Shown piece by piece: positions 1-23,815 of a stretch of DNA of 64,000 nucleotides. Source of the DNA: an uncultured Candidatus Binatia bacterium (lineage in GTDB: Bacteria > Desulfobacterota > Binatia > HRBIN30). Under the pieces are notes generated by a model. That model was not told the DNA's origin and ran no database searches. It worked only from the letters and a program-made list of their open reading frames with translations. How positions within the stretch are numbered: the stretch's first letter is position 1; the number at the start of each line of letters is the position of its first letter. Both the position numbers and the translations under genes were made by a program. The stretch covers positions 1,302 to 65,301 of the forward strand of contig CAZGEJ010000026.1 of NCBI GenBank assembly GCA_964524885.1, written 5' to 3'.

Positions 1-807
1 CCGCGCCGTCTCCGCGATCCCGGCCGCCGCAACCGCCGCCTCGCCCTCGTCTACCACTCGCGCGCCACCGCCGTGCAGCAGCGCCAGCGCGTTCGCCCGG
101 CGCGCCAACGCCCGCACGAACTCCTCCGGCCGGATCTCCGCCCGAACCCGGCCGCCATGCTTCAACCGTAACGGCGTCCGCAACTCGACGACCACCGCCT
201 CCGGCGCCACCTCCTCCACGGGCGCCGGCACCACCGCCGCATGCACCTCGTCGGTGTCGCCGTCATAGATCAGCGCGCCGCTGGGAACCGTCTCAATGCG
301 CTCCAGCCGCATCGCTGCCGCCGCATCGCCGTCGCCGGCCGGATCGCACGTAGCCTGCCGCAATGCCGCGCCCAAACCGCGTCGCGCCACACCCTGCAGC
401 GCCACCACGAGCACCGGCAATTCCTCGATCGCAGCACCAAGCAGCGTCAGCCGCACCTCGACCGACGTCCCCGTCGGAATCTCCACGGGCGCGCCGTCGC
501 CACGCCAGAAGCGGCTCAGCGGCGCCAGCACCAGCCCACGCGGTGCCTGGTCCCGTACCCCGGGGATTGCTACCGTCGCTGGCGTCTCCATCAGCCGCGG
601 GTAAGCGCAACGCCCGAGCAGGACACACCCTTCGCAGGTTGTGCGCCGCGGGAACACACAGACCAGTCGGTAAAGACTACGTCCGAGCGCGCCGTGCGCC
701 GCCGAGCCCAGAAACGCCGGCAGGCGCCGCGGCGCCAGCAGCCGGAAACGCGCTCGCACCACCAGCGCCGGCGGAAGCGCCGCCGCATTCACGATCGGAT
801 CGTTCAC
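1..807 (-). CDS. Cas6-like RAMP endoribonuclease candidate with a Cys-rich insert (PRRTTCEGCVLLGRCAYP). The N-terminal 269 aa are in the window; the gene continues past the left edge.
   Basis: The minus-strand frame is open over all 807 nt; I checked every triplet for stops. It starts with GTG at 807-805, overlapping the TGA of the upstream csx1-like gene (GTGA). The translation begins VNDPIVNAAALPPALVVRARFRLLAPRRLPAFLGSAAHGALGRSLYRLVCVFPRRTTCEGC..., which resembles the Cas6 N-terminal ferredoxin-like motif. It is the last gene of the csm operon. It is not in the ORF track because it runs off the edge. Confidence 0.45.
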   Translation of the reverse strand, partial: MNDPIVNAAALPPALVVRARFRLLAPRRLPAFLGSAAHGALGRSLYRLVCVFPRRTTCEGCVLLGRCAYPRLMETPATVAIPGVRDQAPRGLVLAPLSRFWRGDGAPVEIPTGTSVEVRLTLLGAAIEELPVLVVALQGVARRGLGAALRQATCDPAGDGDAAAAMRLERIETVPSGALIYDGDTDEVHAAVVPAPVEEVAPEAVVVELRTPLRLKHGGRVRAEIRPEEFVRALARRANALALLHGGGARVVDEGEAAVAAAGIAETAR

Positions 808-3817: not shown

Positions 3818-4827
3818 ACAGCCCTCCCCGCGGCACCCGCAGGAACGGCGATCGGCACCGCGATCGCGACTCCCGAGCGGTAGACGTCGTGACCCAGGCC
3901 CAGTTCGGGGCACGCTTCGAGCACCCGCGGCGCGGCGCCGACCCGATCGGCACCGAGGTCGGCCACCAGTGCGCCCTCGGCCAGCATGCGCACATCGCGC
4001 TTGCGCAGCGAGTTCGCGCCGGGACTGGTGATCCAGCCGCCGCGCACGACCGTATCCCAACGCGCCGGCTCGGCGAGCAGGCCGCGCGCGATCTCGTCAT
4101 GCGTCGGCCGGCAGAGGGACAGACAGAGTCGCATGCCGCTGCCGAGCGCGGGGGCGAAGGAGTCAACGGCCTCGACCGCGAAACGGCCGTAGCCGGAGGA
4201 GCGATCGGCGCCGAGGCCCTCTTCTCCGAGCAGCGCCAAGGCAGCCTCGAAGGCGCGGCGGGTGCTTTCCTCGGCGAAGTCGGCGGCGATGCCGAGACGG
4301 ACACCGTCAGCGAAGCGCACGCCGCCGAACTCGTAGAGCAGGCCGGGAATCGGCCCGCCGCCGAGGCGGTTGACGGCGAGGCGGACGCGGCTCTCACGGT
4401 GCCAGAGCCCCTCGCCGTGGACCGCGGCCAGGGCGGTCGGCAGGAGCACGCCGTCGACGACGTCGGCATCGGGCGCGCGGCTGGCGATCAGGTCGCGCAG
4501 CAGAGCGGCCGGCGCGAAGCGGGCGCCCTTCCAGCGCTTGCGGTCGGCACCGGCAGCTGCCTCGGCGAGGCCTGTCGGCAGCGGCAGCGTCGGCAGCCAG
4601 GTGTCGCCGTTCTTCACCACGGGCAGCGCCGACGACACCGCGAACGGCGGTGCCGCGGCGAGCGCGCCGATGTCCGCGCCGGGCTGCACATGCCGCCAGA
4701 CGGAGCACAGCGCCGCGGCGAGCGTATCGGAGCGCGGCAACTCGTCGAGATCGGCGAGGTCGTCGGCGCGTCCGGTGCCGAGGTGCAGCGGTGCGAGGGG
4801 ACGCAGACGATAGAGGATCAAGCTCAT
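3814..4827 (-). CDS. csm4: Csm4 (type III-A RAMP, Cas5 family).
   Basis: The start MSLILYRLRPLAPLHLGTG is a typical Csm4 N-terminus. It lies inside a longer track ORF (3814..5343). ATGA overlaps on both sides. Length is 337 aa. Confidence 0.85.
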   Translation of the reverse strand: MSLILYRLRPLAPLHLGTGRADDLADLDELPRSDTLAAALCSVWRHVQPGADIGALAAAPPFAVSSALPVVKNGDTWLPTLPLPTGLAEAAAGADRKRWKGARFAPAALLRDLIASRAPDADVVDGVLLPTALAAVHGEGLWHRESRVRLAVNRLGGGPIPGLLYEFGGVRFADGVRLGIAADFAEESTRRAFEAALALLGEEGLGADRSSGYGRFAVEAVDSFAPALGSGMRLCLSLCRPTHDEIARGLLAEPARWDTVVRGGWITSPGANSLRKRDVRMLAEGALVADLGADRVGAAPRVLEACPELGLGHDVYRSGVAIAVPIAVPAGAAGRAV

Positions 4828-5612
4828 GCGGCGACGGTGTTGCGGGCGCCGAAGGCGATCGGCTGGGCGAGCCTGCCTTCGTCGGCAGCGGCGGTGGCGA
4901 GCCCGGCGGCATCGCGCCGCACGATGTGCGTCAGGGTGATCTCGACCTGTCCGTAACCGCGCGAGCCCTGACCGCCGATGGCGTCGTCGGCGACGAGTTG
5001 CAGGCCGCGCTGCAACAGCCCGAGCATCTCCTCCTCGTCGTCCTTGTCGTAGACGTTGAGCGCGACCTCGAAGCCGAAGCGGGCTCCGGCCGGGACGCGC
5101 TCGAACTGGCGCGGATTGGCCTTGCTCGTGAGGCGGTCGATCGCGACCTCGGTCTTCACCTCCGCGTAAGGAAGGTCGAGACCCGACCAGTTCGCCATTT
5201 CGGCCGCGCTTGCCGGCGTCATATGGGCGTCGCGGAAGAGAGCACGCGCGGCGCCGGCGTACGGTTTGTCGGGGTCGTAGGGGCGCGACTCGTCGGCGGG
5301 CACGCCGAAGACGAGGCACACCGCACAACCGCCACATTTGCAAGGAGCAAGTGTGATTCCTTGGACCGCGAAACCGTCGCAGCCTAGGCGGGCGCAGTCG
5401 ACCCGTTCGAGTAGGCTGCGCATCTTGCCCTTGAGGGAAGAGCCGGGGATGTACGGCCGGCGGGTCTTGGGATCGCGAACGACGACTTTATCGGCACCGC
5501 CGATGCCGAGGCCGGTGTCGTTGCCGCCGATGTGCATGCCGGTGAGCGCGGTGATCTCGCCGCGCACGAGGATCTTTTTCACCAATCGGGGAGGCTGGAT
5601 CGAAGTGCTCAT
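4824..5612 (-). CDS. csm3: Csm3 (Cas7 backbone subunit).
   Basis: Start MSTSIQPPRLVKKILVRGEITALTGMHIGG. It has the G-rich loop GSSLKGKMRS and the Csm3 zinc-knuckle-like CKCGGCAVCLVFG. There are 5 nt between the csm2 stop and its ATG, with a GAGG Shine-Dalgarno sequence inside csm2. Confidence 0.9.
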   Translation of the reverse strand: MSTSIQPPRLVKKILVRGEITALTGMHIGGNDTGLGIGGADKVVVRDPKTRRPYIPGSSLKGKMRSLLERVDCARLGCDGFAVQGITLAPCKCGGCAVCLVFGVPADESRPYDPDKPYAGAARALFRDAHMTPASAAEMANWSGLDLPYAEVKTEVAIDRLTSKANPRQFERVPAGARFGFEVALNVYDKDDEEEMLGLLQRGLQLVADDAIGGQGSRGYGQVEITLTHIVRRDAAGLATAAADEGRLAQPIAFGARNTVAA

Positions 5613-5617
5613 GGGTC

Positions 5618-6082
5618 TCACCCTCTGCGGTCGGCCTGACCGCTCTTCTCGTAGAACTTGTGGTACGCGACAACCGCTTCGGCGAAGTCGCAGAAGGCCG
5701 CAACCTGCGCCGGTTGCACTTCTTTCGTCAGCGGCCCGAACACAGCCCATAGGTGATTCGCGCTGTCCCGCTTTTTTTCGTTGGAGCGAGCGGTGAGATA
5801 GGCGAGACGCGAGCGCGTCATGCGGATCTGGGCGATCTGCCGCGCCGGGTCGGAGATATCACGGATCTTCGCGACCGATCCGTAGAAGTTGCGCACCTGA
5901 GAGGTCGTAAAGCCCGCTCGCGACAGGGCCTCGGCGAGTTTTTCTGCGCCTTCGTCGATTCCAGCCGGATCCCCGGCGAGCACGGCTTTCCGGATCGTCG
6001 CAACATCGAGCGTCGTCGGCGGCGGCGCGTTAGACCCGCGTCGAGCGTCAGGACTCCGTGTGTCCCTGAAATCGGCACTCAT
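5618..6082 (-). CDS. csm2: Csm2 (Cas11 small subunit).
   Basis: A 154-aa helical small protein sitting between cas10 and csm3. ATGA overlap with the cas10 stop. Position and size are typical of Csm2. Confidence 0.75.
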   Translation of the reverse strand: MSADFRDTRSPDARRGSNAPPPTTLDVATIRKAVLAGDPAGIDEGAEKLAEALSRAGFTTSQVRNFYGSVAKIRDISDPARQIAQIRMTRSRLAYLTARSNEKKRDSANHLWAVFGPLTKEVQPAQVAAFCDFAEAVVAYHKFYEKSGQADRRG

Positions 6083-8652
6083 CCTTCACTCCTTTTCTCT
6101 CGGCTGGCGAGGTCGGCCCATAGAGCAGCCGGCTGCAGCAGCCAGATCAGGTCGCGCGTCGCGCTCCAGCGGCGATCGCCCGACTCCCATTCCCTGCCGG
6201 GCAGGGCATGCATCAGTTTCTCCAGACGCGGTCGCAACTGGGGGTCGCTCATGCGGGCCAGTGCGTAGGCACGGTTCCAGGCCCAACGACCGCGGCGCAC
6301 CCGGTCCTCGACTTCACGTAGCGAGGCAGTGGGGCGTTCGCGGTGATCTCCTTCGAACGAGTCGCGGTAAAGACCAGCGATGCGCGCCAGACGGTGAATC
6401 CAACTGCGCGCGAGCGGCGAAACGACCGGCGCCGCCCGAGCATCCGTCGGAAGGTCGTCGGCGTCCCTGCCGCAGAGCGCCAGGATCTCGCGCGCAAGCG
6501 CCGCGACGACGTCGAGATCCTCCCAGCGCAGAGCATCCTCGAGGAAGGTCAGTCGGTCCTTGCCCTCGTGCTGCTTGGCGCGCTCTTCGAGTTCGCCTGC
6601 CGCCTTCGCCGCCGCCGCGATGGGCTGCCCTGAGCGCACCAGGGCCAGCCCGCCCGAGATGCCCCAGTTCGGGTTACCGGCGGTGAACTGGCTAAAGGCG
6701 CGTCGGATTTCTAGCGCCATCGCCGGCAGCACCGACCAAGCGCCGACGAGAAAGAGGTCGTCGCCGCCGGTGTAGATGATTTGGACTTTTCCGGCCCACG
6801 GCTCCCTTCCTGCCAGTACCGGCACGTGCCCACTGAAGTAGTAGGCCAGCAGCTTCGACAAGTTGGTGATGCGCGAGAAGGTGCGCTCACTCTCCGGCAG
6901 CCCCTCGCGAAAAATGCGGCCGAGCGAGTCGACGTCCATGCGCAGGACGCCGAGCCGTTCGATACCCTCGGACTCGTCGGCCAAGGTCTCGAAGTCCGGC
7001 GCTCGGCCGCTGCCGGCCGAGCCGAGGAAGAGTGCCACCGCACCGGTCGCCGCCGGCTGGAGGTTGGCTGGGGCGAAAACGTGGACCACGTGACGTGATC
7101 CGGCGTCTGCGAGGACGTCGGGGAGAGGCGCGCGTGAGACGAGGAATCCGCGGCGAAGACGCGGCGGTAGCGCGGTGTACCAGTTGCGCTCACGGCCGCC
7201 GAAGTGCTCGCGCAAGTTGTCGAGTTGAGCCCGCCAATCGTCACCGGCGGCAGCAACGAGGCACGTCGCATCGGGCAGCAGCCGGCCGAGTTGGATGAGT
7301 TCGCGACACTCCGGGCACGAAGTCCGCCCGTTCTCGGCGTCGTCGACGACATCGGCGTCGAGCTTACCGCAGGTGCCACAGAGGGTTCCCAGGCCCGGTT
7401 CGCCGAACGGAGCGAAGACCGCTTCGTAGTCCGCCTCGGCGGCACGAGCGAAGCGGCGGCGACGCTGATGCAACAGGTCGGCGGAGGCGGCCTCCCAGCG
7501 AGTCGCCACCCTGCCGGAGACGAAGTCCTCGCCGGACATCGCCGCGGCACCGACGGCAAAACCGAGCCGGCCGCCGTAGTGACGCTGGAGGTCGAGATCG
7601 ATTTCCGACGCGAGCGTGCGCAGCCGTTCCTCGGCGCGGCGCGGCAGCAGCAGCCAGATCTTGCCGCCACCGTTGTAAAGCGCGTTCACCGGCGGCAGGC
7701 CGAGTTCGTCGAGCAGGAACGACGCAATCCCCTCGGCGAGCAGCTGCAGCATGAACGAACGGCCGCGCAGGGCCCGCGCCGCGTTCTTCGAGGCGATGGT
7801 GTAGAGAAAGCGCTGGATCCCGGTCAGATCAGCGACGGCGAGCAGGTACCGCGTGTCGCCGCGGCGACGCACCTCCGCCTCGGCAAACCCGCCCGGTGAC
7901 CCTAGCAACTCGGCCGTCATGGCGGCGGCAATCGCGGCTGCGGCACGGCTGTGCTCGAAGAGCGAAACGTCGCGCGGCAAGGCGTTGGTAGCCGCCGGCA
8001 CACACCAAGCGTAGCGCTCGTACACAGCCAGAAAGGTCCGCAGGAAAACGCCGACGTCGCCGCGAGGAATCTTGCTCGTGTCCTGGCAGAGGGGATCGAA
8101 TAAGGAGCGGTACTCGCGCGCCGCCGCAGCAGCCGAGGGCTCGGCCGCGGAGATGGGAAACAGCGTCGGGCCGAAATCGAGCGCGGCGAACGGGACCGCG
8201 TAAGCGCCGGCATCGCCGCCGCTTACGCGGCCGAGAAGTGGCTCGAGGCGGCACGTCTGGACGAAATGCCAGCCTGCCTTGGCAGCGACCTCGTCGGGGT
8301 GACCGCGATCCATACCCGCGGAAAGACCGTCGGCCTCTGCGACGACGGCGTCGCCTACGTAAGTAGGCTTGTGGTGCCGCGCCGCCCAGCCGGCGACGCT
8401 GTCATCGTCGCCGCGACCGACGGCAGTGAGCCAGTCCGCGTGGTCGGCGATGAACTGCCATGTGTAGGCCGCGTGATGGTACTGCGCCCGCCCGTCCACC
8501 GTGCGAGTGAATAGGTGCTGGTTGGCGAGGCTCTTGTAGCGCTCGGGATCGGCCTCGGCGCGCTGGGCGAGTTTGCCGACGTCGTGGAGAAGGGCCGCCA
8601 AGGCGACCTGTTGCACCAACTCGCGCTGCTCTGCGGTCAACATCCGCTCCAC
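6079..8652 (-). CDS. cas10: Cas10/Csm1 with an intact HD nuclease motif and GGDD cyclase motif.
   Basis: N-terminal HD motif: ALLHDVGK. Treble-clef zinc-finger region: CGTCGKLDADVVDDAENGRTSCPECREL. Palm-domain GGDD: IIYTGGDDLFLVGAW. 857 aa. Shine-Dalgarno GGGAGGTGGAGCGG immediately 5' of the ATG at 8652. Confidence 0.92.
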   Translation of the reverse strand: MERMLTAEQRELVQQVALAALLHDVGKLAQRAEADPERYKSLANQHLFTRTVDGRAQYHHAAYTWQFIADHADWLTAVGRGDDDSVAGWAARHHKPTYVGDAVVAEADGLSAGMDRGHPDEVAAKAGWHFVQTCRLEPLLGRVSGGDAGAYAVPFAALDFGPTLFPISAAEPSAAAAAREYRSLFDPLCQDTSKIPRGDVGVFLRTFLAVYERYAWCVPAATNALPRDVSLFEHSRAAAAIAAAMTAELLGSPGGFAEAEVRRRGDTRYLLAVADLTGIQRFLYTIASKNAARALRGRSFMLQLLAEGIASFLLDELGLPPVNALYNGGGKIWLLLPRRAEERLRTLASEIDLDLQRHYGGRLGFAVGAAAMSGEDFVSGRVATRWEAASADLLHQRRRRFARAAEADYEAVFAPFGEPGLGTLCGTCGKLDADVVDDAENGRTSCPECRELIQLGRLLPDATCLVAAAGDDWRAQLDNLREHFGGRERNWYTALPPRLRRGFLVSRAPLPDVLADAGSRHVVHVFAPANLQPAATGAVALFLGSAGSGRAPDFETLADESEGIERLGVLRMDVDSLGRIFREGLPESERTFSRITNLSKLLAYYFSGHVPVLAGREPWAGKVQIIYTGGDDLFLVGAWSVLPAMALEIRRAFSQFTAGNPNWGISGGLALVRSGQPIAAAAKAAGELEERAKQHEGKDRLTFLEDALRWEDLDVVAALAREILALCGRDADDLPTDARAAPVVSPLARSWIHRLARIAGLYRDSFEGDHRERPTASLREVEDRVRRGRWAWNRAYALARMSDPQLRPRLEKLMHALPGREWESGDRRWSATRDLIWLLQPAALWADLASREKRSEG

Positions 8653-9122: not shown

Positions 9123-11708
9123 ATGAACACCTCGACGATCCGCAAACACCCGCCCATCCTCGATCCAACACCGGTCAGTCCCGACCAGATCGCCGCTCTC
9201 GCCGACTCGCTCGGCCTGCCGATCGTCAACCGCGTCGCTCTGCCCGAGCGCAGCGCACACCACGCTCCGGTGCCGGCCACACTCGCCGCTCCGTTGCGCG
9301 ATACTCTGTCGAATCGCTTCCCGGCCGGGCTTTATGCCCACCAGTCGGCGGCGATCGAGGCTTCGATTGCCGGCAATGACCTGTGTGTCGCCACCTCGAC
9401 CGCCTCGGGCAAAAGCCTCATCTTCATGAGCGCTGCCGCCCATCGGCTGTGCGCCGACCCGAAGGCTCGCGTCCTCGCGCTCTATCCGGCCCGTGCCCTC
9501 ATGCAGGACCAGATCGAGAAATGGCGGACCTTCCTTGCGCCGCTCGGACTCTCCGTCGGGCTCATCGACGGCGGCGTCGACACGCGGCAGCGCGCCGAGA
9601 TCGTCGAGCACAACCACGTCGTCTTGATGACCCCGGACGTTGCTCACGCCTGGGCGCTGTCGCGCGCCGGGGAGCGGCCCGTGCGCCGGTTCCTCGAGCG
9701 GCTCGACCTCGTCGTGCTCGACGAGGCGCACGTCTACGAGGGCGTGTTCGGCACCAACATGTCGTACTTCATGCGCCGCCTGGACATCGTCGCCGGCGGC
9801 TTCGACCTGATCGCCGCCACCGCGACCATTGGCAGGCCCGGCGCGTTCATCGAGAAACTCACGGGCAGGCAGGTGCAGACCTTCGCCGCCGACAGCGACG
9901 CCTCGCCGGCGCCGGCCCGAACCCTGCTTCTCGCCGACGGCCGGGGCAAGAAGCGCTTCCAGCGCATCGCCGACCTGCTCAAGGGCATCGCCCAGCAGCG
10001 CCTCGGTCGCTTCATCGCCTTCGGCGATTCGCGCCGCCTGGTGGAGCGCATGGTGGCCGCCGCCCGCCGCCCGGCCGATGCCGACACGGGCGCGGACCCT
10101 GATGACGCGGTCGACAACGAGGCTGATCTCTCGTTGGACAGCGACGCCGGCGAGATTCTGCCTTACCGTGCCGGCTACGAGACCGAGGACCGCAACGACA
10201 TCCAGAAGGCGCTGGCGCAAGGCCAACTGCTCGGCGTCGTGTCGACCAGCGCGCTCGAGCTCGGACTCGACATCGGCGACATCGACGTCGTCGTCCTGCT
10301 CAATCCGCCGACGAGCACCAAGGCCCTGTGGCAGAGGCTCGGCCGCACCGGGCGTGCCCGTCCGGGGGTGTGTATCGTCATCGACGACCGCGGCACGCTG
10401 GTGGCGCGTCCGCACGGGCTCGAGAGCTACCTGGCCCGCGAGGTCGAGCCGAACTGGCTCTACCTCGACAATCGCTACATTCAGTACGGCAACGCGTTGT
10501 GCGCGGCACAGGAGGCGCGCGTCTGCGGCATCGAGGCGGGCGCAGCGAAGGCGCTGGCGACGTTGCCGGAGAAGTTCCGGGCGATGGTGGAGAACGAGCT
10601 TCACCCGACGGAGGTGGTGCCGGACGATCTCTATCCGTTGAAGCAGCGGGCACAGGCCGGGCCGCACTACGAGTTTCCCCTGCGCAGCAGCATGGAGATG
10701 AACTTCAAGGTGCAGGGTCCGTTCGGCCGCTCCCTGGGCGAGCTGACCTACGGCCAGGTGCTGCGCGAGGCGTATCCGGGAGCGGTCTACTATTACATGG
10801 CCAAACCGTTCCGGGTGATTGCCTTCCGCTACCGGCAGCGCGAGATCCAGACGCGGCGCGACAAGCACCTGACGACACACCCGCTGGCGCAGACGATGGT
10901 ATTCCCGCGCTTCGCCGGCGGCACGCTGGCGCTGCGGCGCAGTGCGGGGGCGTTCGTCGCCGAGGCCGAGGTGCAGGTGAGCGAGCGGGTGATCGGCTTC
11001 AAGGAGATCCGCGGCAGGAACGAGGAGGAGCACCTCTACGGGCCGGAGTCCCCGTGGTCCCAGCGCGACCTGACGCGGTTCTTCCCGACGACGGGGGTGT
11101 GCTGGTTCTCGCCGCGCAAGGCCTTTCTCGCCGAGCGGGTGGGGGACGCGATTCTCGAGGCGTATTGCTCGACCTTCGGAGTGCAGCCCCGGGATCTCGG
11201 TGTCGGATTGTTCCATGCCAACGTGTCGCCGCTCGGCGGGGAGAAGGTACAGGGGCTGTGCGTCTACGACGCGACGCACGGCAGTCTGCGGCTGACGCAG
11301 CGGCTGGCAGAGAACTTTTCCGAGGTGATCGAGGCGGCACGGGCAACGGCTGCGGCGGAGGGAGAGCGCGAGCTCGCGCTCGAGCTCGAGGCCTTCGCCG
11401 CGGAGGTCGCCGGCCTCGCGCCGGCGCCGGTGGAGCACGTAAAGCTGCCTCTCGGCGAGGCCGTTGCCGACGAGTGGGTGACGGTGGTGGCGGCCGGAGG
11501 GCCGGCGATGTTGGTGACCGACGCCCGGACGGCGGAGGTGGTGGTCAAGGATCACCGCTATACGCCACGCGGACTTCTCTACGAGCTCGAGCCGGAGCAG
11601 CCGGGCGTGCGGTGGCTGGTGGCGGCCCGCGACGTGCAGCCGATCTTCGGCCGCAGCCCGCTGGCCAAGCTCAACCTGGAGACGGGAGAGATCCGGGAGG
11701 TGGAGTGA
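9123..11708 (+). CDS. SF2 DEAD/DEAH-box helicase (861 aa) with a ~300-aa C-terminal domain of unknown function (MrfA/DUF1998-like architecture, but no CxxC cluster).
   Basis: Helicase motif Q (YAHQSAAI), motif I (TSTASGKSLIF), motif II (VLDEAHVYEGVFG), motif III (ATATIG) and motif VI (QRLGRTGRAR). Shine-Dalgarno AAAGGAGA 5 nt before the ATG. Divergent from cas10. Confidence 0.85.
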   Translation: MNTSTIRKHPPILDPTPVSPDQIAALADSLGLPIVNRVALPERSAHHAPVPATLAAPLRDTLSNRFPAGLYAHQSAAIEASIAGNDLCVATSTASGKSLIFMSAAAHRLCADPKARVLALYPARALMQDQIEKWRTFLAPLGLSVGLIDGGVDTRQRAEIVEHNHVVLMTPDVAHAWALSRAGERPVRRFLERLDLVVLDEAHVYEGVFGTNMSYFMRRLDIVAGGFDLIAATATIGRPGAFIEKLTGRQVQTFAADSDASPAPARTLLLADGRGKKRFQRIADLLKGIAQQRLGRFIAFGDSRRLVERMVAAARRPADADTGADPDDAVDNEADLSLDSDAGEILPYRAGYETEDRNDIQKALAQGQLLGVVSTSALELGLDIGDIDVVVLLNPPTSTKALWQRLGRTGRARPGVCIVIDDRGTLVARPHGLESYLAREVEPNWLYLDNRYIQYGNALCAAQEARVCGIEAGAAKALATLPEKFRAMVENELHPTEVVPDDLYPLKQRAQAGPHYEFPLRSSMEMNFKVQGPFGRSLGELTYGQVLREAYPGAVYYYMAKPFRVIAFRYRQREIQTRRDKHLTTHPLAQTMVFPRFAGGTLALRRSAGAFVAEAEVQVSERVIGFKEIRGRNEEEHLYGPESPWSQRDLTRFFPTTGVCWFSPRKAFLAERVGDAILEAYCSTFGVQPRDLGVGLFHANVSPLGGEKVQGLCVYDATHGSLRLTQRLAENFSEVIEAARATAAAEGERELALELEAFAAEVAGLAPAPVEHVKLPLGEAVADEWVTVVAAGGPAMLVTDARTAEVVVKDHRYTPRGLLYELEPEQPGVRWLVAARDVQPIFGRSPLAKLNLETGEIREVE

Positions 11709-11709
11709 G

Positions 11710-12249
11710 ATGGAGTTCCTTCATCCGACCTGTCCGCACGCAGGACGTAGATCCACCGACTCTCCAGAAACGCATCAGGAAAGGATAGAGGACATGCATC
11801 GACGTGGATCCACCTCAACATCGGAACCCCTCCAACGGGATGACATTCCACGCCAACTCGAGCCCGGATCGCACATCATGGTGAAGAGGACGCTGCAGTA
11901 CTCGCATCATGGAGTCTACATCGGCGACGGTCGGGTCATTCACTTCTCAGGCGAACCCTTCGACATGGCCAATGCGTCGATCTGCGAAACGACCATTGAG
12001 GATTTCCTGAACGGCGGCGTTCCGCGGGTGGTTCTGCACGGCGACGAGCAACTGGCCGCCGATGTCGTCGTCCAGAACGCGAGCAAGCGACTCGGCGAAA
12101 CCGGCTACCGTCTGACGGCGAACAATTGCGAACACTTCGCGACCGAATGCTGCACAGGAAAGCCGTCTTGCAAGCAGTTCCAGGCCTTCATCTGGGGTGG
12201 TCTGATTGGTCTGGGGTTGCACAACAACCTCAACGGAGAAAGGTCCTAG
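11710..12249 (+). CDS. LRAT / H-box-NC domain protein (NlpC/P60 superfamily acyltransferase/phospholipase-like).
   Basis: The segment LEPGSHIMVKRTLQYSHHGVYIGDGRVIHFSG aligns with the PLAAT/LRAT His box. The C-terminal NCEHFATECC matches the NCEHF catalytic-Cys motif. It starts 1 nt after the helicase stop. Confidence 0.7.
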   Translation: MEFLHPTCPHAGRRSTDSPETHQERIEDMHRRGSTSTSEPLQRDDIPRQLEPGSHIMVKRTLQYSHHGVYIGDGRVIHFSGEPFDMANASICETTIEDFLNGGVPRVVLHGDEQLAADVVVQNASKRLGETGYRLTANNCEHFATECCTGKPSCKQFQAFIWGGLIGLGLHNNLNGERS

Positions 12250-12251
12250 AA

Positions 12252-12446
12252 ATGAATGAACACGATGCGCAGGCGAAAGGTGCTGTTGCAGGCGGCGAGT
12301 CAGTCAAGCTGGTCGCTGCCACGGCGGCAGCGGGAGTCGCGGCCTTCATTGTAGGGGGAATCGTGCTGGCGGTTCCGGTGACCGCTGCCGTTGGGTGTGT
12401 CGCCTATCGACAAATCAAGAACAGCAGCCTTGGCACAACCGTATAG
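12252..12446 (+). CDS. Small membrane protein (64 aa, one Ala/Gly/Val-rich transmembrane helix).
   Basis: MNEHDAQAKGAVAGGESVKLVAATAAAGVAAFIVGGIVLAVPVTAAVGCVAYRQIKNSSLGTTV. Shine-Dalgarno GGAGAAAGG upstream. 2 nt after the LRAT-like stop. Confidence 0.45.
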   Translation: MNEHDAQAKGAVAGGESVKLVAATAAAGVAAFIVGGIVLAVPVTAAVGCVAYRQIKNSSLGTTV

Positions 12447-12547
12447 GACCGCCCGCTCCTCGGAGTCATTGCGGCGCATAGCTTCTCCCGCATCCTGGAG
12501 GACTCACCCGCCGCCGGGAGTCTGCTCTTGAACCTGCCACCGGGTCG

Positions 12548-13318
12548 GTGGCAGACAGCCTAGAGCATGGTCGTTCAGCCAGCCTTCGAGCTCGAGCAGG
12601 GGTTCCGATGAACCTCGGCGAGGCACTGCGGATTCTCGGGCCCGAGAAAGCGGCCGGCGACCGGGAGTTGGCCGCGGAGGTGCTGCGCGCCAAGATTGCA
12701 CAACTCGTGCGCGCCAAGGGAACCTATCCGGCGGGCCGCGACGACGCGGACGACGCCGTCCAGCGCGTCCTGCTGCGCATGCTGCGCCGGCTACGTCCTT
12801 TGCAAGGCGATGCGGAGGGCGTAGCCGCTTCGTACCTGCGGTCGGCCGTCGACCACGATTTCGCCGACCAGCTCAAGCGCAAGCGCACCCGCACTAAGGC
12901 GCGGCCGACGGCGGTCCACACGCCGACCGCGCTGGACGCAGACTCCGGCGAGGACCACCCCGATCCGGTCATCGTCGACCCGGTGTCTCCCGAAGAGATC
13001 GCCGCGGGCCGAGCCGAGGCCGAGCGGATCCAGAAGATCTTCCTCGACCAGATCGTTGCCGGGCTCGACGCCCGCAACCCCCAAGGCCGCGGAGCCGTAA
13101 TCGTCGCGCAACTGCAACGCATCGCGCGCGGCGAAACTACGGTCGAAGAAATCATCGAGGCCGAAGGCGGGGACTTCACGAAGGCACGCAACCGCTTTTA
13201 TCAAAACGTGCACCGACTCCGAGAGAGGATTGCGGCCGAGATCGACAGGTGCCACCCCGACGATCGGCCGGCCCTGTACGACGTGCTCGAGCGTCTGAAA
13301 ATCCAGAGGACCCGATGA
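12548..13318 (+). CDS. ECF-type sigma-70-like protein (putative). An alternative ATG start at 12608 is possible.
   Basis: Region-2-like DDAVQRVLLRMLRRLRPLQGDAEGVAASYLRSAVDHDFADQLKRKR. C-terminal region-4-like HTH EEIIEAEGGDFTKARNRFYQNVHRLRERI. The sigma assignment rests on motifs only. Confidence 0.45.
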   Translation: MADSLEHGRSASLRARAGVPMNLGEALRILGPEKAAGDRELAAEVLRAKIAQLVRAKGTYPAGRDDADDAVQRVLLRMLRRLRPLQGDAEGVAASYLRSAVDHDFADQLKRKRTRTKARPTAVHTPTALDADSGEDHPDPVIVDPVSPEEIAAGRAEAERIQKIFLDQIVAGLDARNPQGRGAVIVAQLQRIARGETTVEEIIEAEGGDFTKARNRFYQNVHRLRERIAAEIDRCHPDDRPALYDVLERLKIQRTR

Positions 13319-13541
13319 ACCGGAGGGACAACAACCGGTCGGTCGCCCGCTTCGACTCGCCCCCACGAAGTCGGCACGCCGCGGCAATCGCGGCGCGGGA
13401 AGATTCCGCGGCGGGCTGCGCCGCCCGCTTTGTCTCCCGGCGGGAGCGGGCCAGAACTTCGAGCTCGCATGTCAGACGCTCGGCCCTCGCGCGTCCGTAT
13501 CGCCATGCCATCTTGCTACGCCGCCCAGGAAAGCTCCCACG

Positions 13542-14633
13542 ATGACCCTCCGGCTGCCCCCCGAAGAGCGCGCCCGTCTTGGCCTTAGCGACACCGCCCC
13601 CGGTGATACCGAAGTTCTCGAGATCGCCGCCCCTGCCGCCGATCAGGGCCGTGGCACCCTCACCGCCTTCACGACGGTTGGAGTCATTGCCGGCGGCGCC
13701 CCGTCGCTGGTAAGCCTCGTGGCGGATCTCTTCGCTCAAAAGCAGCCGACCGCCGAGTTCGCGTCCGTCTCCTCTCGCATCGCGCGCAACGCAAACCTCG
13801 CCATCTCCCTGCACCGGCAGAACCACGGCCTGGTGCTGGTGGAGTCGCCGCGGCACCGCCTCCACGGACGCGGCGTCGTGCCTGACGCCGTCGTTCATCC
13901 CGACAGCGATCCCGCCGCCGTCGTCGCCGACCTCAACGCCGGCCCGGCGGCGATCGAGTTGTCCGACGGTAGCCGCATCGTCCTCCAATTCCGTCAAGGC
14001 AAGATCATGCTCGACTGGCTCCCAGCGCACTCGGACGCACCGCTTCCCACTACGATTTCCCCACCACTGCTCCGGCTGATGCACGACACACGAGACCCAT
14101 GGGCGCACGGACTGATCCACGCGGCGCTCACTGCCACCGACGCTTGGACCCAACTGGTCGCCGCCGGAACCTTTTGCCGCCTCTGGGAGCCCACCTCAGC
14201 CGACGAGATCCGTGACGCCGTGCAGCGCGCCATCGCCGGAACTCCGGAGCCGCACCAGACGGAACTACGAACCTGGGGGAGCACTCTGTCATCGGACGAC
14301 AAGGCGGCGCTCCGCCGCACCTGCCTGACCCGCATCGACGGCATGCATCGCCTCCTCGACGACCTCACACTCGAGATGGCGCCGGACGATACCGCGTGGA
14401 TTGCTCGCTTCGAGCAGGCTTGCCGCGAGCGCGATGACCTCGAGTCGGTGCGGGCCGACCTCGCTGCGGCCGGAGTTGTCGACGAAGTCGACATCGCACT
14501 CGAGGGGCTCGACGCGCGTGGGCGCTCTCTCGTGACGGCACTGCCGGTCGTGATCCGGATCGACGACGAGCGACTGCAACGGGCGGCACGCGTCGATCCG
14601 AACGCTTGGTGGGCCGAGCCGGCGCTCGCCTGA
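13542..14633 (+). CDS. Hypothetical protein (363 aa) between the sigma-like gene and the Lon-like protease; possible protease substrate, anti-sigma or sensor.
   Basis: Long ORF with good GC3 bias. Shine-Dalgarno AGGAAAG before the ATG. Mixed beta/alpha-looking sequence with no recognisable motif. It overlaps the next ORF start by 28 nt. Confidence 0.6.
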   Translation: MTLRLPPEERARLGLSDTAPGDTEVLEIAAPAADQGRGTLTAFTTVGVIAGGAPSLVSLVADLFAQKQPTAEFASVSSRIARNANLAISLHRQNHGLVLVESPRHRLHGRGVVPDAVVHPDSDPAAVVADLNAGPAAIELSDGSRIVLQFRQGKIMLDWLPAHSDAPLPTTISPPLLRLMHDTRDPWAHGLIHAALTATDAWTQLVAAGTFCRLWEPTSADEIRDAVQRAIAGTPEPHQTELRTWGSTLSSDDKAALRRTCLTRIDGMHRLLDDLTLEMAPDDTAWIARFEQACRERDDLESVRADLAAAGVVDEVDIALEGLDARGRSLVTALPVVIRIDDERLQRAARVDPNAWWAEPALA

Positions 14634-16483
14634 AGCCACCCGTGAATCTGACCCGATCCGAACGCGAACGCCGGACGCGGAGTCTGCGCGCGGCTCGATG
14701 GTGTTGGCCGCAAGCCGGCACTCATGAGTTTCGCGAGGCGCTCTCCCTCGTCTCCGAAGGCCCGCCCGCACTTTCTCCCGGCGAAGTGCCGCTGGTGACC
14801 GTCGACGCCCGCGGCTTCGCCGGCAGCCTGTGGTGCCTACGCATGGGAGCAGCGGATCACGAACCCGGACTCGCATCCTTCGAGGGTAGCGCCCGGCGCG
14901 CCTGGCAGAATGCCGCGCTCGCGGTGCCGCGCTCCCTACCGCTTCTCTGGTCCGACGTGCGGCGAGTCGCGCAACGCGACCTTCACGCCGAGCACCTCGC
15001 CCAACACCTCCTGCGTGACGGCGCCGCGCCGCCGGCCCAAGAACTCACCGGAACGTCATTCGGTCTATCCTTCGTGCTCGCGTTGACGTCTCTGGTGATC
15101 GATCGGCCGCTCCCCGACACGTGGGTGGCAACAGCGGAAGTCAGCGCCGACGGCGCCATCGGTCCGGTCGAAGGGCTCGAGGCGAAGATCGCGGTGATCG
15201 AGCGGCACGCGCCGCACCTCAGCCAACTACTCGTCGCCGCCGCCCAGGAAGAAGCAGCGCATAGTCTGGCTGGGCGCCTGGAAATCGTGCCCGTCCGCAG
15301 CGCGGCTCAGGCGATCCGGCGGGTCTTCGGAGACGACGCCTTCGCGGCCTGTCTCGGTGCCTATGCCGCCGACGCAACGCAGCGCTCCGAGGTCGTCGAC
15401 TTCTTCTTCCGCCAAGCGCTGGTCGGCAGCCGTCGGGTCTATGTCGACTGGGGACCCATCGCGCGGGCGGCAACCACGGCCCTCGAGACCTGGACCGGCC
15501 TCGACGCAAACGACCGCTGGCGGCTCGAGCTGGCGCGCGGCATCGCCGACCGCCATGCCGGCGGCCGGACGGCGATCAGCGCCCCCAGCGACAGCCAGCT
15601 ACGGCGTTTTCCACGTTCACTTCGAGTGTCGCTGGTGGCGCAGTTGGTCCAACACTGCCATGACGTAGGCACACCCAGTCCCAAGGAGATGGAGCCCTAC
15701 CTCGCGGACACGAGCATCTTCGTACCGCTCGAGGACGCGTTCGCGCAGCATCTCGCGGCATGGGGCACGCGGGCGCGACTTTTGGCATCGACGGGGAAAC
15801 CGGCGGAGGCACTGCGCCTCCAAGAGAACCTCGCCATGGCCTGGGTAGAGCGGCTGGAATACGCCCAGACGACCTTTCCACTCTCGGAGTGGTTTCGCCT
15901 GGGCGGCGCCCTCGCTACACTGCCGCACGGCTGTACCCGGGCGGAGGCGACCGCCGCTGTCGATCGCGCGGAGCGCCTTTACGGAGAGTTGGCCGCCCGC
16001 GTCGGCTTCGACCCGCAGAGCGCAGGGTACGTGGACCTTGCCCGCACACGCGCCAGGCTCGTGCGGCTCGGCGACAGTTCCGGACGAGCGGCACCAGCGG
16101 ACGACGCGGTCGCAGCTGCCGACACGGTTCTCGCGCGTCTCGCGGACGACGAAGTCTATGTACCGTGGCACGTGCGCTTCGCGGCCCTGCGGCTGCGGAT
16201 TGCCTTGTGCGAGAGCAGCGGCGACAGCCGAACGGCCGCGATTCTTGGTCGAATGCTCGCCGACGCTGATTCCGGCGAGAACAGCGAACGCACCCGCGCG
16301 GCACACCGGGCGGCGATTCTAGTCCGTCTCGACCGCGCGCTGCGCCATAACGACGACGAAGAAGCAGCGATCGCCGTCGACTTGCTGACGGCGGACGACC
16401 CGGGGCCGATGGGTCACCTACGCGCCGTCGCCGACCCTCCCCGCGGTAGGGCTGCGTACGTCGCGGCTTACTACCCGTACTGA
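14606..16483 (+). CDS. Lon-like (S16) Ser-Lys protease domain fused to a ~390-aa Ala/Leu/Arg-rich (probably helical) C-terminal domain.
   Basis: ELTGTSFGLSFVLALTSLV ... VATAEVSADGAIGPVEGLEAKIAVIERH. Putative Ser151 (GTSFG, like GPSAG) and Lys194 (GLEAK, like GGLKEK) are 43 residues apart, as in E. coli Lon S679/K722. The start is uncertain; an ATG at 14843 is also possible. Confidence 0.65.
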   Translation: MVGRAGARLKPPVNLTRSERERRTRSLRAARWCWPQAGTHEFREALSLVSEGPPALSPGEVPLVTVDARGFAGSLWCLRMGAADHEPGLASFEGSARRAWQNAALAVPRSLPLLWSDVRRVAQRDLHAEHLAQHLLRDGAAPPAQELTGTSFGLSFVLALTSLVIDRPLPDTWVATAEVSADGAIGPVEGLEAKIAVIERHAPHLSQLLVAAAQEEAAHSLAGRLEIVPVRSAAQAIRRVFGDDAFAACLGAYAADATQRSEVVDFFFRQALVGSRRVYVDWGPIARAATTALETWTGLDANDRWRLELARGIADRHAGGRTAISAPSDSQLRRFPRSLRVSLVAQLVQHCHDVGTPSPKEMEPYLADTSIFVPLEDAFAQHLAAWGTRARLLASTGKPAEALRLQENLAMAWVERLEYAQTTFPLSEWFRLGGALATLPHGCTRAEATAAVDRAERLYGELAARVGFDPQSAGYVDLARTRARLVRLGDSSGRAAPADDAVAAADTVLARLADDEVYVPWHVRFAALRLRIALCESSGDSRTAAILGRMLADADSGENSERTRAAHRAAILVRLDRALRHNDDEEAAIAVDLLTADDPGPMGHLRAVADPPRGRAAYVAAYYPY

Positions 16484-16560
16484 CTCCCGCCTTGGGTGTC
16501 AGACAGGAGCGACGCGCGCGTCTTTCCACCCGGCAGCAAACGCCGGAAAGGGAGGACGCC

Positions 16561-16782
16561 GTGAACGCTCATCATCGAAACCACAAGCGCCTGTGCCGCG
16601 GCTGCGGCGACCACTGGGCCCGCTACCAATACCGCGGGCGTGTGCGCTGGGACCGACGCCACGACGTCTGCTTCCGCTGCTGGCGGTCGCTGATGGATCG
16701 CCACAGGCCGGTCCGCTCGCGCTTCAACGTGCCGGCACCGATTCACGTGCCATGGCAATCGCCGCTACGCGAAGCTGCCTGA
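16561..16782 (+). CDS. Possible small basic zinc-ribbon protein (~73 aa) with two CxxC pairs.
   Basis: Shine-Dalgarno GGAAAGGGAGGA, 4 nt, then GTG. VNAHHRNHKRLCRGCGDHWARYQYRGRVRWDRRHDVCFRCWRSL... Lies in the gap after the Lon-like gene. Confidence 0.3.
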   Translation: MNAHHRNHKRLCRGCGDHWARYQYRGRVRWDRRHDVCFRCWRSLMDRHRPVRSRFNVPAPIHVPWQSPLREAA

Positions 16783-21203: not shown

Positions 21204-22493
21204 ATGCGATTCGCAACCATCGTGATCACACTTGGGCTGCACGTCGGCATCGCGGTCGCCGCGTCTACGCCGGAGCAGAAATGCGAGTCCGGCAAGCTCG
21301 ACACCGCTGGCAAGCTGTCGGCCTGCTTGGCTAAGGCGGAAAGCAAGATGATCAAGGGCGACGCCGCCGGCTACGGCGAAGCGATCGTCAAATGCACCGA
21401 CAAGTTCAGCGGTCAGTGGGCGAAGCTCGAGCAAGCCGCCATCGACGCGATGGCCAGCTGCCCGAGCACGATGGACGTCGCCGCCGTCGAGTCGTTCCTC
21501 ACCGCCTGCCACACCGCGCTGATCTCCAGTTTTGCCGGCGGCACGCTGGTCGACGATCCGATCAGTTGCGACGGCGACTACACCACTTGCGACACCGACC
21601 TCAACGACTGCACCACGGATGTCGATCTGTGCACCGCAGGCACCGCGGTCGCCGCCGACGTCGTCGCCGGAGCGACCTTCTCCAGCAGTGCCGGCATCGG
21701 ACTGACCGGCACGGCGGCGCTGCGCGACGACGTCATCGGCACGGAGGGCGCGCTCAGCTTCGCCCTGCCCGACGGCTACTACGAGGGAAAATCCTGCACT
21801 GCCGGCGACACCGACCTGCTGGCGGCCAACCTCAAATCGGGCGTCGAGATCTTCGACGTCTTCGGCAGCGCGCCGGATTACCAACCATTGAAATCGGCGC
21901 AGACGCTCTGCCACGACAGCAGCGGCTCAGCGGTCGCCTGCGGCGGCACCGGCCAAGACGGCGAACTGCAACGCGGCGCCGCCCGCCTCTACGTCACCAA
22001 TCCCGACGGCACAGTGAGCGATGTGCGCACCGGCCTGGTGTGGGAGAAGCTCAGCAACGACGGCGGCCTGCACGACAAAGACACGACCTTTACTTGGGCC
22101 AACGCCTTCAAGAAGGTGATGGTGCTCAACGGCGATGCCGCCGGCTGCATCGGCGCCGGCCACCCCGACGCCTGCTGCACCGGCGCCGGCACCGGCAGTT
22201 GCAGCTCGTTCGCAGGCGCCAGCGACTGGCGTCTTCCCAATCTCCAAGAGCTGCGCAGTCTGCTGGCCTACAGCTCGATCAATCCGGCGATCGACGCCGC
22301 CTTCAACTCCGGTTGCGTCGCCTCGTGTGCGGTGACCGCCTGCAGTTGCATCGTTCCGGGCCACCATTGGTCGTCGACCACCTACAGCGCCACGCCGGCG
22401 TCGGCCTGGTTCGTCGAGTTCAACCTGGGCGAGGCCAACCGCACCGCCAAGTCGGCCGCCTATCACGTGCGCGCCGTGCGCGGTGGCATCTGA
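21204..22493 (+). CDS. Secreted Cys-rich protein with a C-terminal DUF1566 (Lcl C-terminal) domain.
   Basis: Signal peptide MRFATIVITLGLHVGIAVAAS. C-terminal DWRLPNLQELRSL...WSSTTY...AWFVEFNLG...YHVRAVRGG. Shine-Dalgarno AGGAGG before the ATG. Confidence 0.8.
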   Translation: MRFATIVITLGLHVGIAVAASTPEQKCESGKLDTAGKLSACLAKAESKMIKGDAAGYGEAIVKCTDKFSGQWAKLEQAAIDAMASCPSTMDVAAVESFLTACHTALISSFAGGTLVDDPISCDGDYTTCDTDLNDCTTDVDLCTAGTAVAADVVAGATFSSSAGIGLTGTAALRDDVIGTEGALSFALPDGYYEGKSCTAGDTDLLAANLKSGVEIFDVFGSAPDYQPLKSAQTLCHDSSGSAVACGGTGQDGELQRGAARLYVTNPDGTVSDVRTGLVWEKLSNDGGLHDKDTTFTWANAFKKVMVLNGDAAGCIGAGHPDACCTGAGTGSCSSFAGASDWRLPNLQELRSLLAYSSINPAIDAAFNSGCVASCAVTACSCIVPGHHWSSTTYSATPASAWFVEFNLGEANRTAKSAAYHVRAVRGGI

Positions 22494-22516
22494 GCGTTCT
22501 CAGCATGGAGGGAGAC

Positions 22517-23815
22517 ATGATGAGAAAGTCGATCACACAGGTACTCGCACTGCTCGCCACCGCCAGCGTCGCCCTGGCGGTCACGCCGGAAGAAAAATGC
22601 GAGATCGGCAAACACGCCACCGCCGGCAAGCTCGCCGCCTGCCTAGCCAAAGCCGAAAAGAAGTTCGTCATCAGCGGCGATGCCGGCGCCTACGGCGAGG
22701 CACAACTCAAGTGCGCTGCAAAGTTCGAAACCAAGTGGCAGAAGCTCGAAGCCGCTGCCACCGCCGCGATGACCAGTTGTCCGAGCACCATGGATCAAAC
22801 CGCGGTCGCCGAGTTTCGTAACGCCTGCCACCAGGCAGTGGCCACCGCCCTCAGCGGTGGCACGCTGATCGCCGATCCAATCGCCTGCGCCGCCAGTTTG
22901 ACGAGCTGCACCACCGACCGCGATAGCTGCGCCAGCGACCTTGCCAGCTGCAACGGCGGTTCGGCGACAGCGGCCGACGTGTTGGCGGGCAAGACCTTCG
23001 CCAGTGCCGACGGATTGTCGATCACCGGCACCGTACCCGCTGGCGGCGCCGTCGTCGGCGCCGACGGCGAACTCGCCCCGGAGATTCCCGACGGCATCTA
23101 CAGCGGCAAAACCTGCACCGTCGCCGACTCCGATCTCGACGCCGCCAACGTCGTCGCCGGTGTCGATCTGTTCGGCGTCGCCGGCCAACACGCCATCGCC
23201 AAATTGCTGAGGTCCGGGCAGGCCGCCTGCCACGACAGCGCCGGCGGCAGCATCGCCTGCAGCGGCACCGGACAGGACGGCGAGGTGCAGGCCGGCGGCA
23301 CGCGCGCCTACACCGTCTCTGGCGACGGTACGCTCAGCGACGATCGCACCGGGCTGGTATGGGAGAAGCTCGGCGACAACGGCGGCATTCACGACAAAGA
23401 CTCCGTTTACTCGTGGCTGAACGCGTTCAACAAGATCCGCGTGCTCAACGGCGATGTTGCAGGCTGCCTTGCCACAGGCAATCCCTCGGCGTGCTGCACC
23501 GGCGCCGGCACCGGCAGCTGCACGCCTTTCGCCGGTTTCACCGATTGGCGGCTGCCCAACGTCGAGGAACTCGCCAGCCTGGTGCACTACGGCGCGGCCA
23601 ACCCGGCGATCGACGCCAGTTTCTCCGCTCCCTGCAGCGGCGGTTGCGCCAACACGAGCTGCAGCTGCGTCGCCACCGGCTCGGCCTATTGGACATCGAC
23701 GACCTTCCGCAACTCGCCGGCCTCGGCATGGTACGTGTCGTTCTTCGACGGCCAGATCTTCGGCTTCATCAAGGTGAATGGCCTGCACGTCCGCGCGGTA
23801 CGCGGCGGCGCGTAG
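22517..23815 (+). CDS. Secreted Cys-rich DUF1566 protein, paralogue of the preceding gene.
   Basis: MMRKSITQVLALLATASVALA signal peptide. The same CESGK...ACLAKAE N-terminal module and a DWRLPNVEELASL...YWTSTT...LHVRAVRGGA C-terminus. It sits in-frame inside the track ORF 21392..23815. Confidence 0.8.
   Translation: MMRKSITQVLALLATASVALAVTPEEKCEIGKHATAGKLAACLAKAEKKFVISGDAGAYGEAQLKCAAKFETKWQKLEAAATAAMTSCPSTMDQTAVAEFRNACHQAVATALSGGTLIADPIACAASLTSCTTDRDSCASDLASCNGGSATAADVLAGKTFASADGLSITGTVPAGGAVVGADGELAPEIPDGIYSGKTCTVADSDLDAANVVAGVDLFGVAGQHAIAKLLRSGQAACHDSAGGSIACSGTGQDGEVQAGGTRAYTVSGDGTLSDDRTGLVWEKLGDNGGIHDKDSVYSWLNAFNKIRVLNGDVAGCLATGNPSACCTGAGTGSCTPFAGFTDWRLPNVEELASLVHYGAANPAIDASFSAPCSGGCANTSCSCVATGSAYWTSTTFRNSPASAWYVSFFDGQIFGFIKVNGLHVRAVRGGA

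Follow-up and report, generated by a model that had tools for sequence, protein, structure and literature searches.

A Lon-TPR protease cassette with an ECF-sigma-like protein beside a type III CRISPR-Cas operon: a possible autonomous switch of bacterial defence islands

Introduction

Does a Lon-type protease that is encoded close to a cas10 gene serve type III CRISPR-Cas signalling, or does it belong to a regulatory unit of its own? The question is raised by three plus-strand genes in a 64-kb stretch of DNA from an uncultured Candidatus Binatia bacterium (contig CAZGEJ010000026.1; the whole stretch is referred to as the window), which code for a divergent protein resembling extracytoplasmic function (ECF) sigma factors, for a 363-residue partner protein, A2, and for a Lon-like Ser/Lys protease fused to a tetratricopeptide repeat (TPR)-type superhelix. 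An earlier note, made from the sequence alone, had proposed that these genes are a protease/sigma signalling arm downstream of the neighbouring type III system, having an unrecognized or relocated sensor for cyclic oligoadenylates (cOA). The analysis described here leads to a different view, to which we give about an even chance of being right: the three genes may be an autonomous, horizontally mobile, cytoplasmic sigma/anti-sigma/protease switch that resides in defence islands.

Results

The protease has a Lon fold and a TPR-type superhelix

The protease gene is found at 14642..16483 (+). The longest open reading frame (ORF) starts at TTG 14606 and codes for 625 residues, but the start at GTG 14642, giving 613 residues, is more probable, because the database entry for this protein (P0001) has 613 residues and because the N-termini of the homologues fit this start. 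In the numbering of the 625-residue form, which is used throughout, the Lon domain comprises residues ~30-250 and the TPR-like domain residues ~255-625. The Lon-type Ser/Lys segment reported in the earlier note is indeed present: the serine of the GTSFG motif is Ser151 (codon TCA, 15056..15058, +), the lysine of the GLEAK motif is Lys194 (codon AAG, 15185..15187, +), and the two are 43 residues apart. Both are invariant in an alignment of 10 sequences, and each is at least 90% conserved among 97 family members.

When the single protease sequence is compared with Lon models, the matches are below threshold (Pfam Lon_C, E = 0.008; PADLOC SAVED-Lon, E = 4e-4, the latter spanning residues 145-204 only). 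The profile of the 97 sequences matches the Lon proteolytic domains of the PDB with E = 5.5e-13. In this profile alignment, the family motif dGrSfGL is placed on DGPSAGI of Lon and LeaKi on LKEKL, such that Ser151 and Lys194 occupy the positions homologous to S679 and K722 of Escherichia coli Lon. Structural comparison also points to a Lon fold. Clearly, the fold of this protease is a genuine Lon fold. An AAA+ ATPase module is not found in the protease by Pfam or in the structural model, and the protein is therefore considered to be an ATP-independent Lon-like protease.

Past residue ~235 the model is all-helical, and the best matches of this tail in structural comparisons are NprR (score 13.8), RapI and RapH (13.0), domain III of MalT (12.2), PlcR (11.3) and AimR (10.6). 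These matches identify the tail as a TPR-type superhelix and not as a SAVED or CARF domain, in agreement with the earlier description, and neither of these two domains is detected in the protease by Pfam, NCBIfam or PADLOC or in the structural model. The nearest structural relatives of the TPR domain bind peptides, and this domain is likely to be the sensor or the substrate adaptor of the protease. The sequence identity with the RRNPP receptors (Rap, NprR, PlcR, AimR) and with MalT domain III is only 5-13%, and in those proteins the TPR domain is fused to a helix-turn-helix or phosphatase module, whereas here it is fused to a protease; a signalling-peptide gene was not identified for the cassette. 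TPR folds converge easily, and the likeness to the RRNPP family is therefore taken as resemblance, not as membership. The chain ends in a conserved Pro-Tyr, usually as [FY]PY or [FY]-[YF]-P-Y, in 128 of 155 family members (16472-16480 in the window), and this C-terminal tripeptide may serve for docking or for autoinhibition.

The partner protein lacks a recognizable domain

The gene of the partner A2, the proposed anti-sigma factor and protease substrate, lies at 13542..14633 (+). It was first described as a protein without a nameable motif, and this still applies: there are no Pfam or NCBIfam matches, the partner profile has no PDB match at E <= 10, and nothing significant is found in PADLOC, where there is one sub-threshold match (E = 0.038). 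In the model, the N-terminal part (~160 residues) is beta-rich and of low confidence, with predicted local distance difference test (pLDDT) values below 50 for residues 30-54, and the C-terminal half (~170-363) is a confidently modelled helical bundle. It is the C-terminal half that is conserved, having the motifs RDDLE, DDERL and AWW, and the beta-rich N-terminal part is the least conserved. A Rossmann-like CARF or SAVED domain is not found in the partner by Pfam, NCBIfam or PADLOC or in the model, of which the N-terminal 160 residues are of low confidence. As the models of the protease and of the partner show no cOA-sensor fold, the idea that the sensor had been relocated to the 363-residue protein or to the helical tail is not borne out.

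The sigma-like protein shows region-2 similarity to ECF sigma factors

The longest ORF of the sigma-like gene begins at GTG 12548 (256 residues). The gene probably starts at ATG 12608 (12608..13318, +; 236 residues), as it is also called in two related loci (L001 and L002). The window protein on its own gives sub-threshold matches with Pfam Sigma70_r2 (E = 0.03) and TIGR02937, sigma70-ECF (E = 3e-5), and a profile of four family sequences matches no sigma factor in the PDB. When 15 members drawn from the related loci are used for the profile, the top PDB matches are ECF sigma factors, being SigL (4.5e-4), a SigH/SigE chimera (1.1e-3) and 5uxx (8.6e-3), followed by SigE and CnrH. TIGR02937 is matched by 11 of these 15 members (best 2.5e-6) and Pfam Sigma70_r2 by eight (best 1.4e-5); the region-2 matches of single members are sub-threshold, yet consistent across the family. 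As with the other two proteins, Pfam, NCBIfam and PADLOC detect no CARF or SAVED domain in the sigma-like protein.

Of the two sigma regions that had been suggested for this protein, region 2 is thus supported by the family profiles, whereas region 4 is unproven at the level of sequence. When the window protein is aligned with TIGR02937, the match extends to model position 159 of 165, and a conserved RNR.YQ..R.R motif of the family, as judged by eye, looks like the last part of helix 4.2. The Pfam result for region 4 is considered in the Discussion.

The three genes form a conserved cassette in a large family

All three ORFs exist at the coordinates given above, and the G+C fractions of their first, second and third codon positions (GC1/GC2/GC3, ~0.76/0.5/0.78) follow the pattern of real genes. 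The 28-nt overlap between the partner and protease genes that had been noted before is probably an artefact of the longest-ORF call at TTG 14606; with the GTG 14642 start there is an 8-nt gap. Coupled expression of the two genes is still plausible, because in related loci they are adjacent, with 4-nt overlaps or short gaps.

Word-index homology searches under-sampled the families (10, 3 and 4 matches). By an exhaustive profile search with the protease, 4,164 proteins are found at E <= 1e-3, and at E <= 1e-30 there are at least 584 clusters (50% identity), nearly all of them full-length proteins of ~600 residues. Wherever the source names of the family were checked, they read "hypothetical protein", and a published description of the Lon-TPR family was not found in the literature searched. 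For about 45 related loci, collected from genomes and metagenomes, the ORFs were searched with the profiles: the protease is present in 42, the partner gene is directly upstream of it in 37, and the sigma-like gene is upstream of the partner gene in at least 24. The order sigma-like gene, A2, protease gene is invariant, and absences are almost wholly due to contig ends. The hosts belong to the Acidobacteriota (among them Vicinamibacteria), the Planctomycetota and the Myxococcota. In one cluster (P0140, 939 residues, six members from independent sources), A2 and the protease are naturally fused. These data support the notion that the three genes function together. Searches of plasmids (tblastn) and of viral contigs gave no matches to the family.

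In one locus (L036, 1131-6512), a single ORF of 1,139 residues replaces the sigma-like and 363-residue genes in front of a divergent protease homologue; this may be an alternative architecture.

Type III CRISPR-Cas is an occasional neighbour of the cassette

The window has a G+C content of 68%, and its left end (1-8652, minus strand) is occupied by a complete type III-A-like operon. It comprises cas6 (1-849, -), a gene of the CARF-HEPN-CARF Csx1/Csm6 type (804-2498, -; PADLOC E = 8e-114), then csm5, csm4, csm3 and csm2 (-), and cas10 (6079-8652, -), so that the Cas10, Csm2-5, Cas6 and CARF effector features of a type III-A system are all present. Cas10 has an HD motif and, as had been stated, an intact GGDD motif (at residue 629). 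A CRISPR array is not found inside the 64-kb window; it is presumably situated past the left window edge. The cassette is ~4 kb from cas10. It had been described as divergent from cas10, which is correct with respect to the opposite strands but loose otherwise, as three plus-strand genes lie in between. These are densely packed (9123-12446) and code for a DEAH helicase with an MrfA zinc-binding domain (9123-11708, +; TIGR03817-like, E = 2e-68; PADLOC BrxHI-like, 4e-32), an LRAT/NlpC-P60-family protein (11710-12249, +; Pfam LRAT, E = 4e-25) and a hydrophobic protein of 64 residues (12252-12446, +). The trio may be a separate defence module or an output of the cassette.

The genomic context could be evaluated for ~18 loci with at least 5 kb of flanking sequence, in which cas genes and arrays were scored. 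Type III CRISPR-Cas adjoins the cassette in three of them. Besides the window, these are a Myxococcales locus (L020), where a CARF-HEPN-Csx20 gene and cas6 are 5.5 kb upstream of the cassette, and a Planctomycetia locus (L021), where the cassette is located between a CRISPR array and a block of csm6 (HEPN), CARF7-DUF2103 and type III-D cas7 genes. In a neighbour-joining tree of the protease, the window belongs to one clade, and L020 and L021 branch separately within a second deep clade. In ~15 of the 18 loci, neither a cas gene nor an array is within reach, and the enrichment of homologues near type III loci that a dedicated link would predict is largely absent. The closest protease relative (L049, 74% identity) adjoins hsdM, the methylase gene of a type I restriction-modification system, and the neighbourhood is entirely different even between these 74%-identical relatives. 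Moreover, all three adjacent type III loci encode CARF-family proteins of their own, namely the Csx1-type CARF-HEPN-CARF protein in the window, CARF-HEPN-Csx20 in L020, and both a Csm6-HEPN protein and a CARF7-DUF2103 protein in L021. The claim that the cassette is a dedicated arm downstream of type III CRISPR is not upheld by these observations, and the adjacency suggests clustering in defence islands, or a facultative link, rather than a dedicated ancillary module.

Among 90 neighbour proteins from 14 other loci, PADLOC reports mad3/LmuB/PtuA-like ABC ATPases (eight matches), mad8/HerA-like ATPases (six) and MkoA (two), and none of the 25 most frequent PADLOC families is a Cas family. Further neighbours of the cassette are SbcCD, an Eco57I-type methylase, a NACHT protein and VapBC. 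Membership of the cassette in MADS, to which the mad3 and mad8 models belong, was considered and rejected: the three cassette proteins match no mad model, and the searched text of the MADS preprint does not contain protease, sigma or Lon. The mad3/LmuB/PtuA/GajA matches indicate a generic ABC-ATPase neighbour and are not evidence for MADS.

Variable genes and conserved non-coding blocks around the cassette

Several further genes recur beside the cassette in subsets of the loci. LRAT-family genes adjoin it in the window, in L021 and in L035; they are recurrent, not universal, and are candidates for a cassette output. The position of the DEAH helicase of the window is taken in L020 by an SNF2 helicase. 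Directly 3' of the protease gene is a small Arg- and Cys-rich ORF (16492..16782, +) with zinc-ribbon-like CxxC...CxxC spacing, which is kept in L049 (phmmer E = 2e-40) and called as an 85-residue gene in L001, L002 and L004; no copy was found in the more distant loci, and the ORF is possibly a clade-specific fourth cassette gene.

A protein of ~370-440 residues, named X, is encoded directly before the sigma-like gene in seven loci that belong to one deep clade (L020, 6885-7961; L021, 3961-5292; L007, L008, L018, L019 and L039). These include both other CRISPR-adjacent loci, and in L007 the X gene stands in the place of the sigma-like gene. X has no Pfam or PADLOC match, and the window lacks it. 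Loci of the Vicinamibacteria clade have, after the cassette, a gene for an ABC/SMC-type ATPase of ~840 residues (Walker A motif GRNGSGKS; PADLOC cross-matches to mad3, LmuB, PtuA and GajA) and one for a protein of ~125-150 residues (L009, L010, L012 at 11690-14335, L014, L017, L025 and L026), often with a HerA/mad8-like ATPase upstream. Together with the cassette, these genes may form a larger conserved system in this clade.

Upstream of the sigma-like gene, a 34-nt non-coding block, CTTGAACCTG..N..TCGGTGGCAGACA (12527..12560, +), is located ~50-80 nt before the start codon and is the sole well-conserved island of this spacer in the alignment with L049. A second block, TGTCAGA...GCCCTCGCGCGTCC (~13470-13510), precedes the 363-residue gene and is likewise conserved with L049, its surroundings having diverged. 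Both blocks are candidate promoters or operators, judging from their conservation. A terminator-like hairpin is seen at 13410-13425, between the sigma-like and 363-residue genes.

Elsewhere in the window, an Lcl_C (DUF1566) domain is found at the C-terminus of a 429-residue ORF (21204-23815, +), after which there appears, from the look of the sequence, to be a second Cys-rich copy (roughly 22550-23815, +). Two tandem arrays, at 57152-57523 and 57965-58248, have units of 93 nt and 111 nt with 66-75% identity and carry no assigned gene.

Discussion

Comparison with known systems

The CalpL/T/S system (Rouillon et al. 2023, as cited in PMC11229360) is the precedent for a protease/anti-sigma/sigma switch, and the parts list of the cassette resembles it, as had been pointed out, in having a Lon protease, an ECF-like sigma protein and a partner, here without SAVED or CARF. 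An AAA+-less, ATP-independent Lon-like protease is common to both. CalpL has a C-terminal SAVED4 domain for binding cA4, whereas this domain is missing from the cassette protease, which has the TPR superhelix in its place; the sequence of the latter is nearer to canonical Lon than to CalpL, and CalpL is not among its PDB matches at E <= 1. Neither CalpT nor CalpS is retrieved from the PDB by the partner and sigma-like profiles, so that what is shared is the gene logic only. Unlike CalpL, the family has no consistent association with type III CRISPR. The C-terminal TPR superhelix and the failure of the two other profiles to detect CalpT or CalpS support the conclusion that the protease is not a CalpL orthologue, and the finding of neither a SAVED nor a CARF domain in it points the same way.

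Another precedent for a protease-controlled sigma factor is the Craspase-Csx30-sigma system of type III-E, in which Craspase (Cas7-11 with TPR-CHAT) is accompanied by Csx30, Csx31 and the sigma factor (PMC10028731, PMC9825189). Common to this system and the cassette are a TPR-fused protease, a substrate protein controlling an ECF-like (RpoE-like) sigma factor, and occasional embedding in type III loci. The protease of Craspase is a CHAT (Cys/His) protease and that of the cassette a Lon (Ser/Lys) protease, and the TPR domain is N-terminal in TPR-CHAT (Csx29) and C-terminal in the cassette protein. No gRAMP/Cas7-11 is found in the window or the related loci, similarity to Csx30 is undetectable in that the 363-residue profile matches no PDB sequence, and most cassette loci, unlike Craspase, are without CRISPR. 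The best reading is that the cassette follows the logic of CalpL/T/S and Craspase-Csx30-sigma but is a member of neither.

With respect to a role as regulator of an island, the best precedent, by analogy, would be DdvS/DdvA, an ECF sigma/anti-sigma pair that controls an island with CBASS and type III-B in Myxococcus xanthus (PMC6061681, PMC11506125). In both cases, an ECF-type sigma module is encoded beside defence genes, which DdvS/DdvA turns on. DdvA is a transmembrane anti-sigma factor, and DdvS/DdvA has no dedicated Lon-TPR protease. BrxL, which belongs to BREX, differs from the cassette protease by its AAA+ module and by a protease site that is inactive or atypical; no BREX genes are near the cassette.

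Proposed mechanism and alternative explanations

In the mechanism that we propose, the 363-residue protein would keep the divergent ECF-like sigma protein inactive. The protease carries a Lon-like Ser151/Lys194 site without an AAA+ module, and its TPR superhelix would act as sensor or adaptor. When the TPR domain engages a cue, which is probably a peptide or a protein and not a cyclic nucleotide, the protease would cut the 363-residue partner, by analogy with CalpL-CalpT and Craspase-Csx30. The freed sigma-like protein could then redirect RNA polymerase to the promoter of the cassette and to neighbouring genes. These targets would differ from genome to genome, being LRAT-family enzymes, X, the ABC- and HerA-type ATPases or type III CRISPR-Cas. 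Where it adjoins a type III system, as in the window, the cassette most probably either shares the island or regulates it, in analogy with DdvS/DdvA in Myxococcus; a role as cOA-activated effector is improbable.

Several observations weigh against this proposal. None of the 15 sigma-like members matches a Pfam region-4 model, and with region 4 undetected the 236-residue protein may be an incomplete sigma factor. Further copies of the 12527-12560 block, sought as the signature of a sigma regulon, are not present (there is one occurrence in the window), and the regulon is therefore not identified. The context sample is small, ~18 evaluable loci as compared with more than 580 clusters, and the three independent type III adjacencies leave room for a real connection with CRISPR.

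It is possible, although we consider it unlikely, that the cassette is a true type III ancillary module that functions without CARF or SAVED, the TPR domain docking on Csm/Cmr in the way that TPR-CHAT docks on Cas7-11, or the helical domain sensing a Cas10 product, and cleavage of the 363-residue protein freeing the sigma-like protein. Such a module would account for the short distances to cas10 in the window and to csx1 and cas6 in L020, for the position of the L021 cassette between an array and csm6/CARF7/cas7 genes, and for the scatter of these three loci over separate parts of the protease tree, and it would fit the parallel between the TPR-protease, partner and sigma architecture and Craspase-Csx30-RpoE (PMC10028731, PMC9825189). 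What decides against it for us is that most evaluable loci are without CRISPR, that the closest relative lies beside a restriction-modification gene, that CARF-family proteins are already encoded at all three CRISPR-adjacent loci, and that a nucleotide-binding fold is not seen in the models of the protease or the partner. The frequency of three in 18 exceeds the expectation for a random gene (binomial P = 0.005 at an assumed base rate of 2%) but is borderline for a gene of defence islands, not being significant at an assumed base rate of 5% (P = 0.06).

Two other explanations leave CRISPR aside, and each is judged to be about as improbable as the ancillary module. The 363-residue protein could be a latent toxin that is activated on cleavage by the Lon-TPR protease, like gasdermins or the N-terminal fragment of Csx30, with the sigma-like protein regulating the operon only. 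Protease-activated effectors beside repeat-domain proteases are common in defence systems, partner and protease are closely coupled and sometimes fused, and the two partner domains are joined by a variable segment of low confidence (residues 30-54) that would be a plausible cleavage region. The best-conserved portion of the partner, however, is a helical bundle that shows neither an enzymatic nor a pore-forming signature, signs of transmembrane or amphipathic segments were not noted in the protein, and for an effector domain it would be unusual that the beta-rich N-terminal part is the least conserved; the almost constant presence of the sigma-like gene also suggests more than an accessory regulator. 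Alternatively, the cassette could be an ordinary stress-response sigma/anti-sigma pair with its dedicated protease, unrelated to defence, the defence genes nearby being coincidental neighbours in variable regions. Acidobacteriota, Planctomycetota and Myxococcota are extremely rich in ECF sigma modules, the family is not found on plasmids or viral contigs, and many of the neighbours are unannotated. This explanation is difficult to reconcile with the recurrence of defence-type neighbours (CRISPR, restriction-modification, ABC/HerA ATPases, MkoA, NACHT, toxin-antitoxin), with the complete change of neighbourhood between 74%-identical relatives, and with a patchy distribution across phyla like that of mobile defence cassettes.

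Implications

To our knowledge, bacterial immune sensing is known to lead to a transcriptional programme only by way of protease-released sigma factors, namely those of CalpL/T/S and Craspase-Csx30-sigma, and both are tied to type III systems. A bolder reading, to which we give even less credence than to the alternatives above, is that type III target recognition is linked to transcription by a third route, as yet undescribed, which is the Lon-TPR cassette and in which the protease is switched on without a cyclic-nucleotide sensor. The TPR domain might dock on Csm/Cmr like TPR-CHAT, or bind a phage- or Cas-derived peptide, and the many CRISPR-free copies would rely on different defence sensors or work in trans with a type III system encoded at another place in the genome.

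According to the preferred explanation, that of an autonomous switch, the cassette has the same three-part logic as these two systems, but with a TPR superhelix of the peptide-binding type as sensor and with a location that is mostly outside CRISPR, beside diverse defence genes. If this is true, it would provide a new ligand-gated protease to characterize, and the release of a sigma factor by a protease, rather than being a speciality of CRISPR, would serve defence islands generally as a portable control module.

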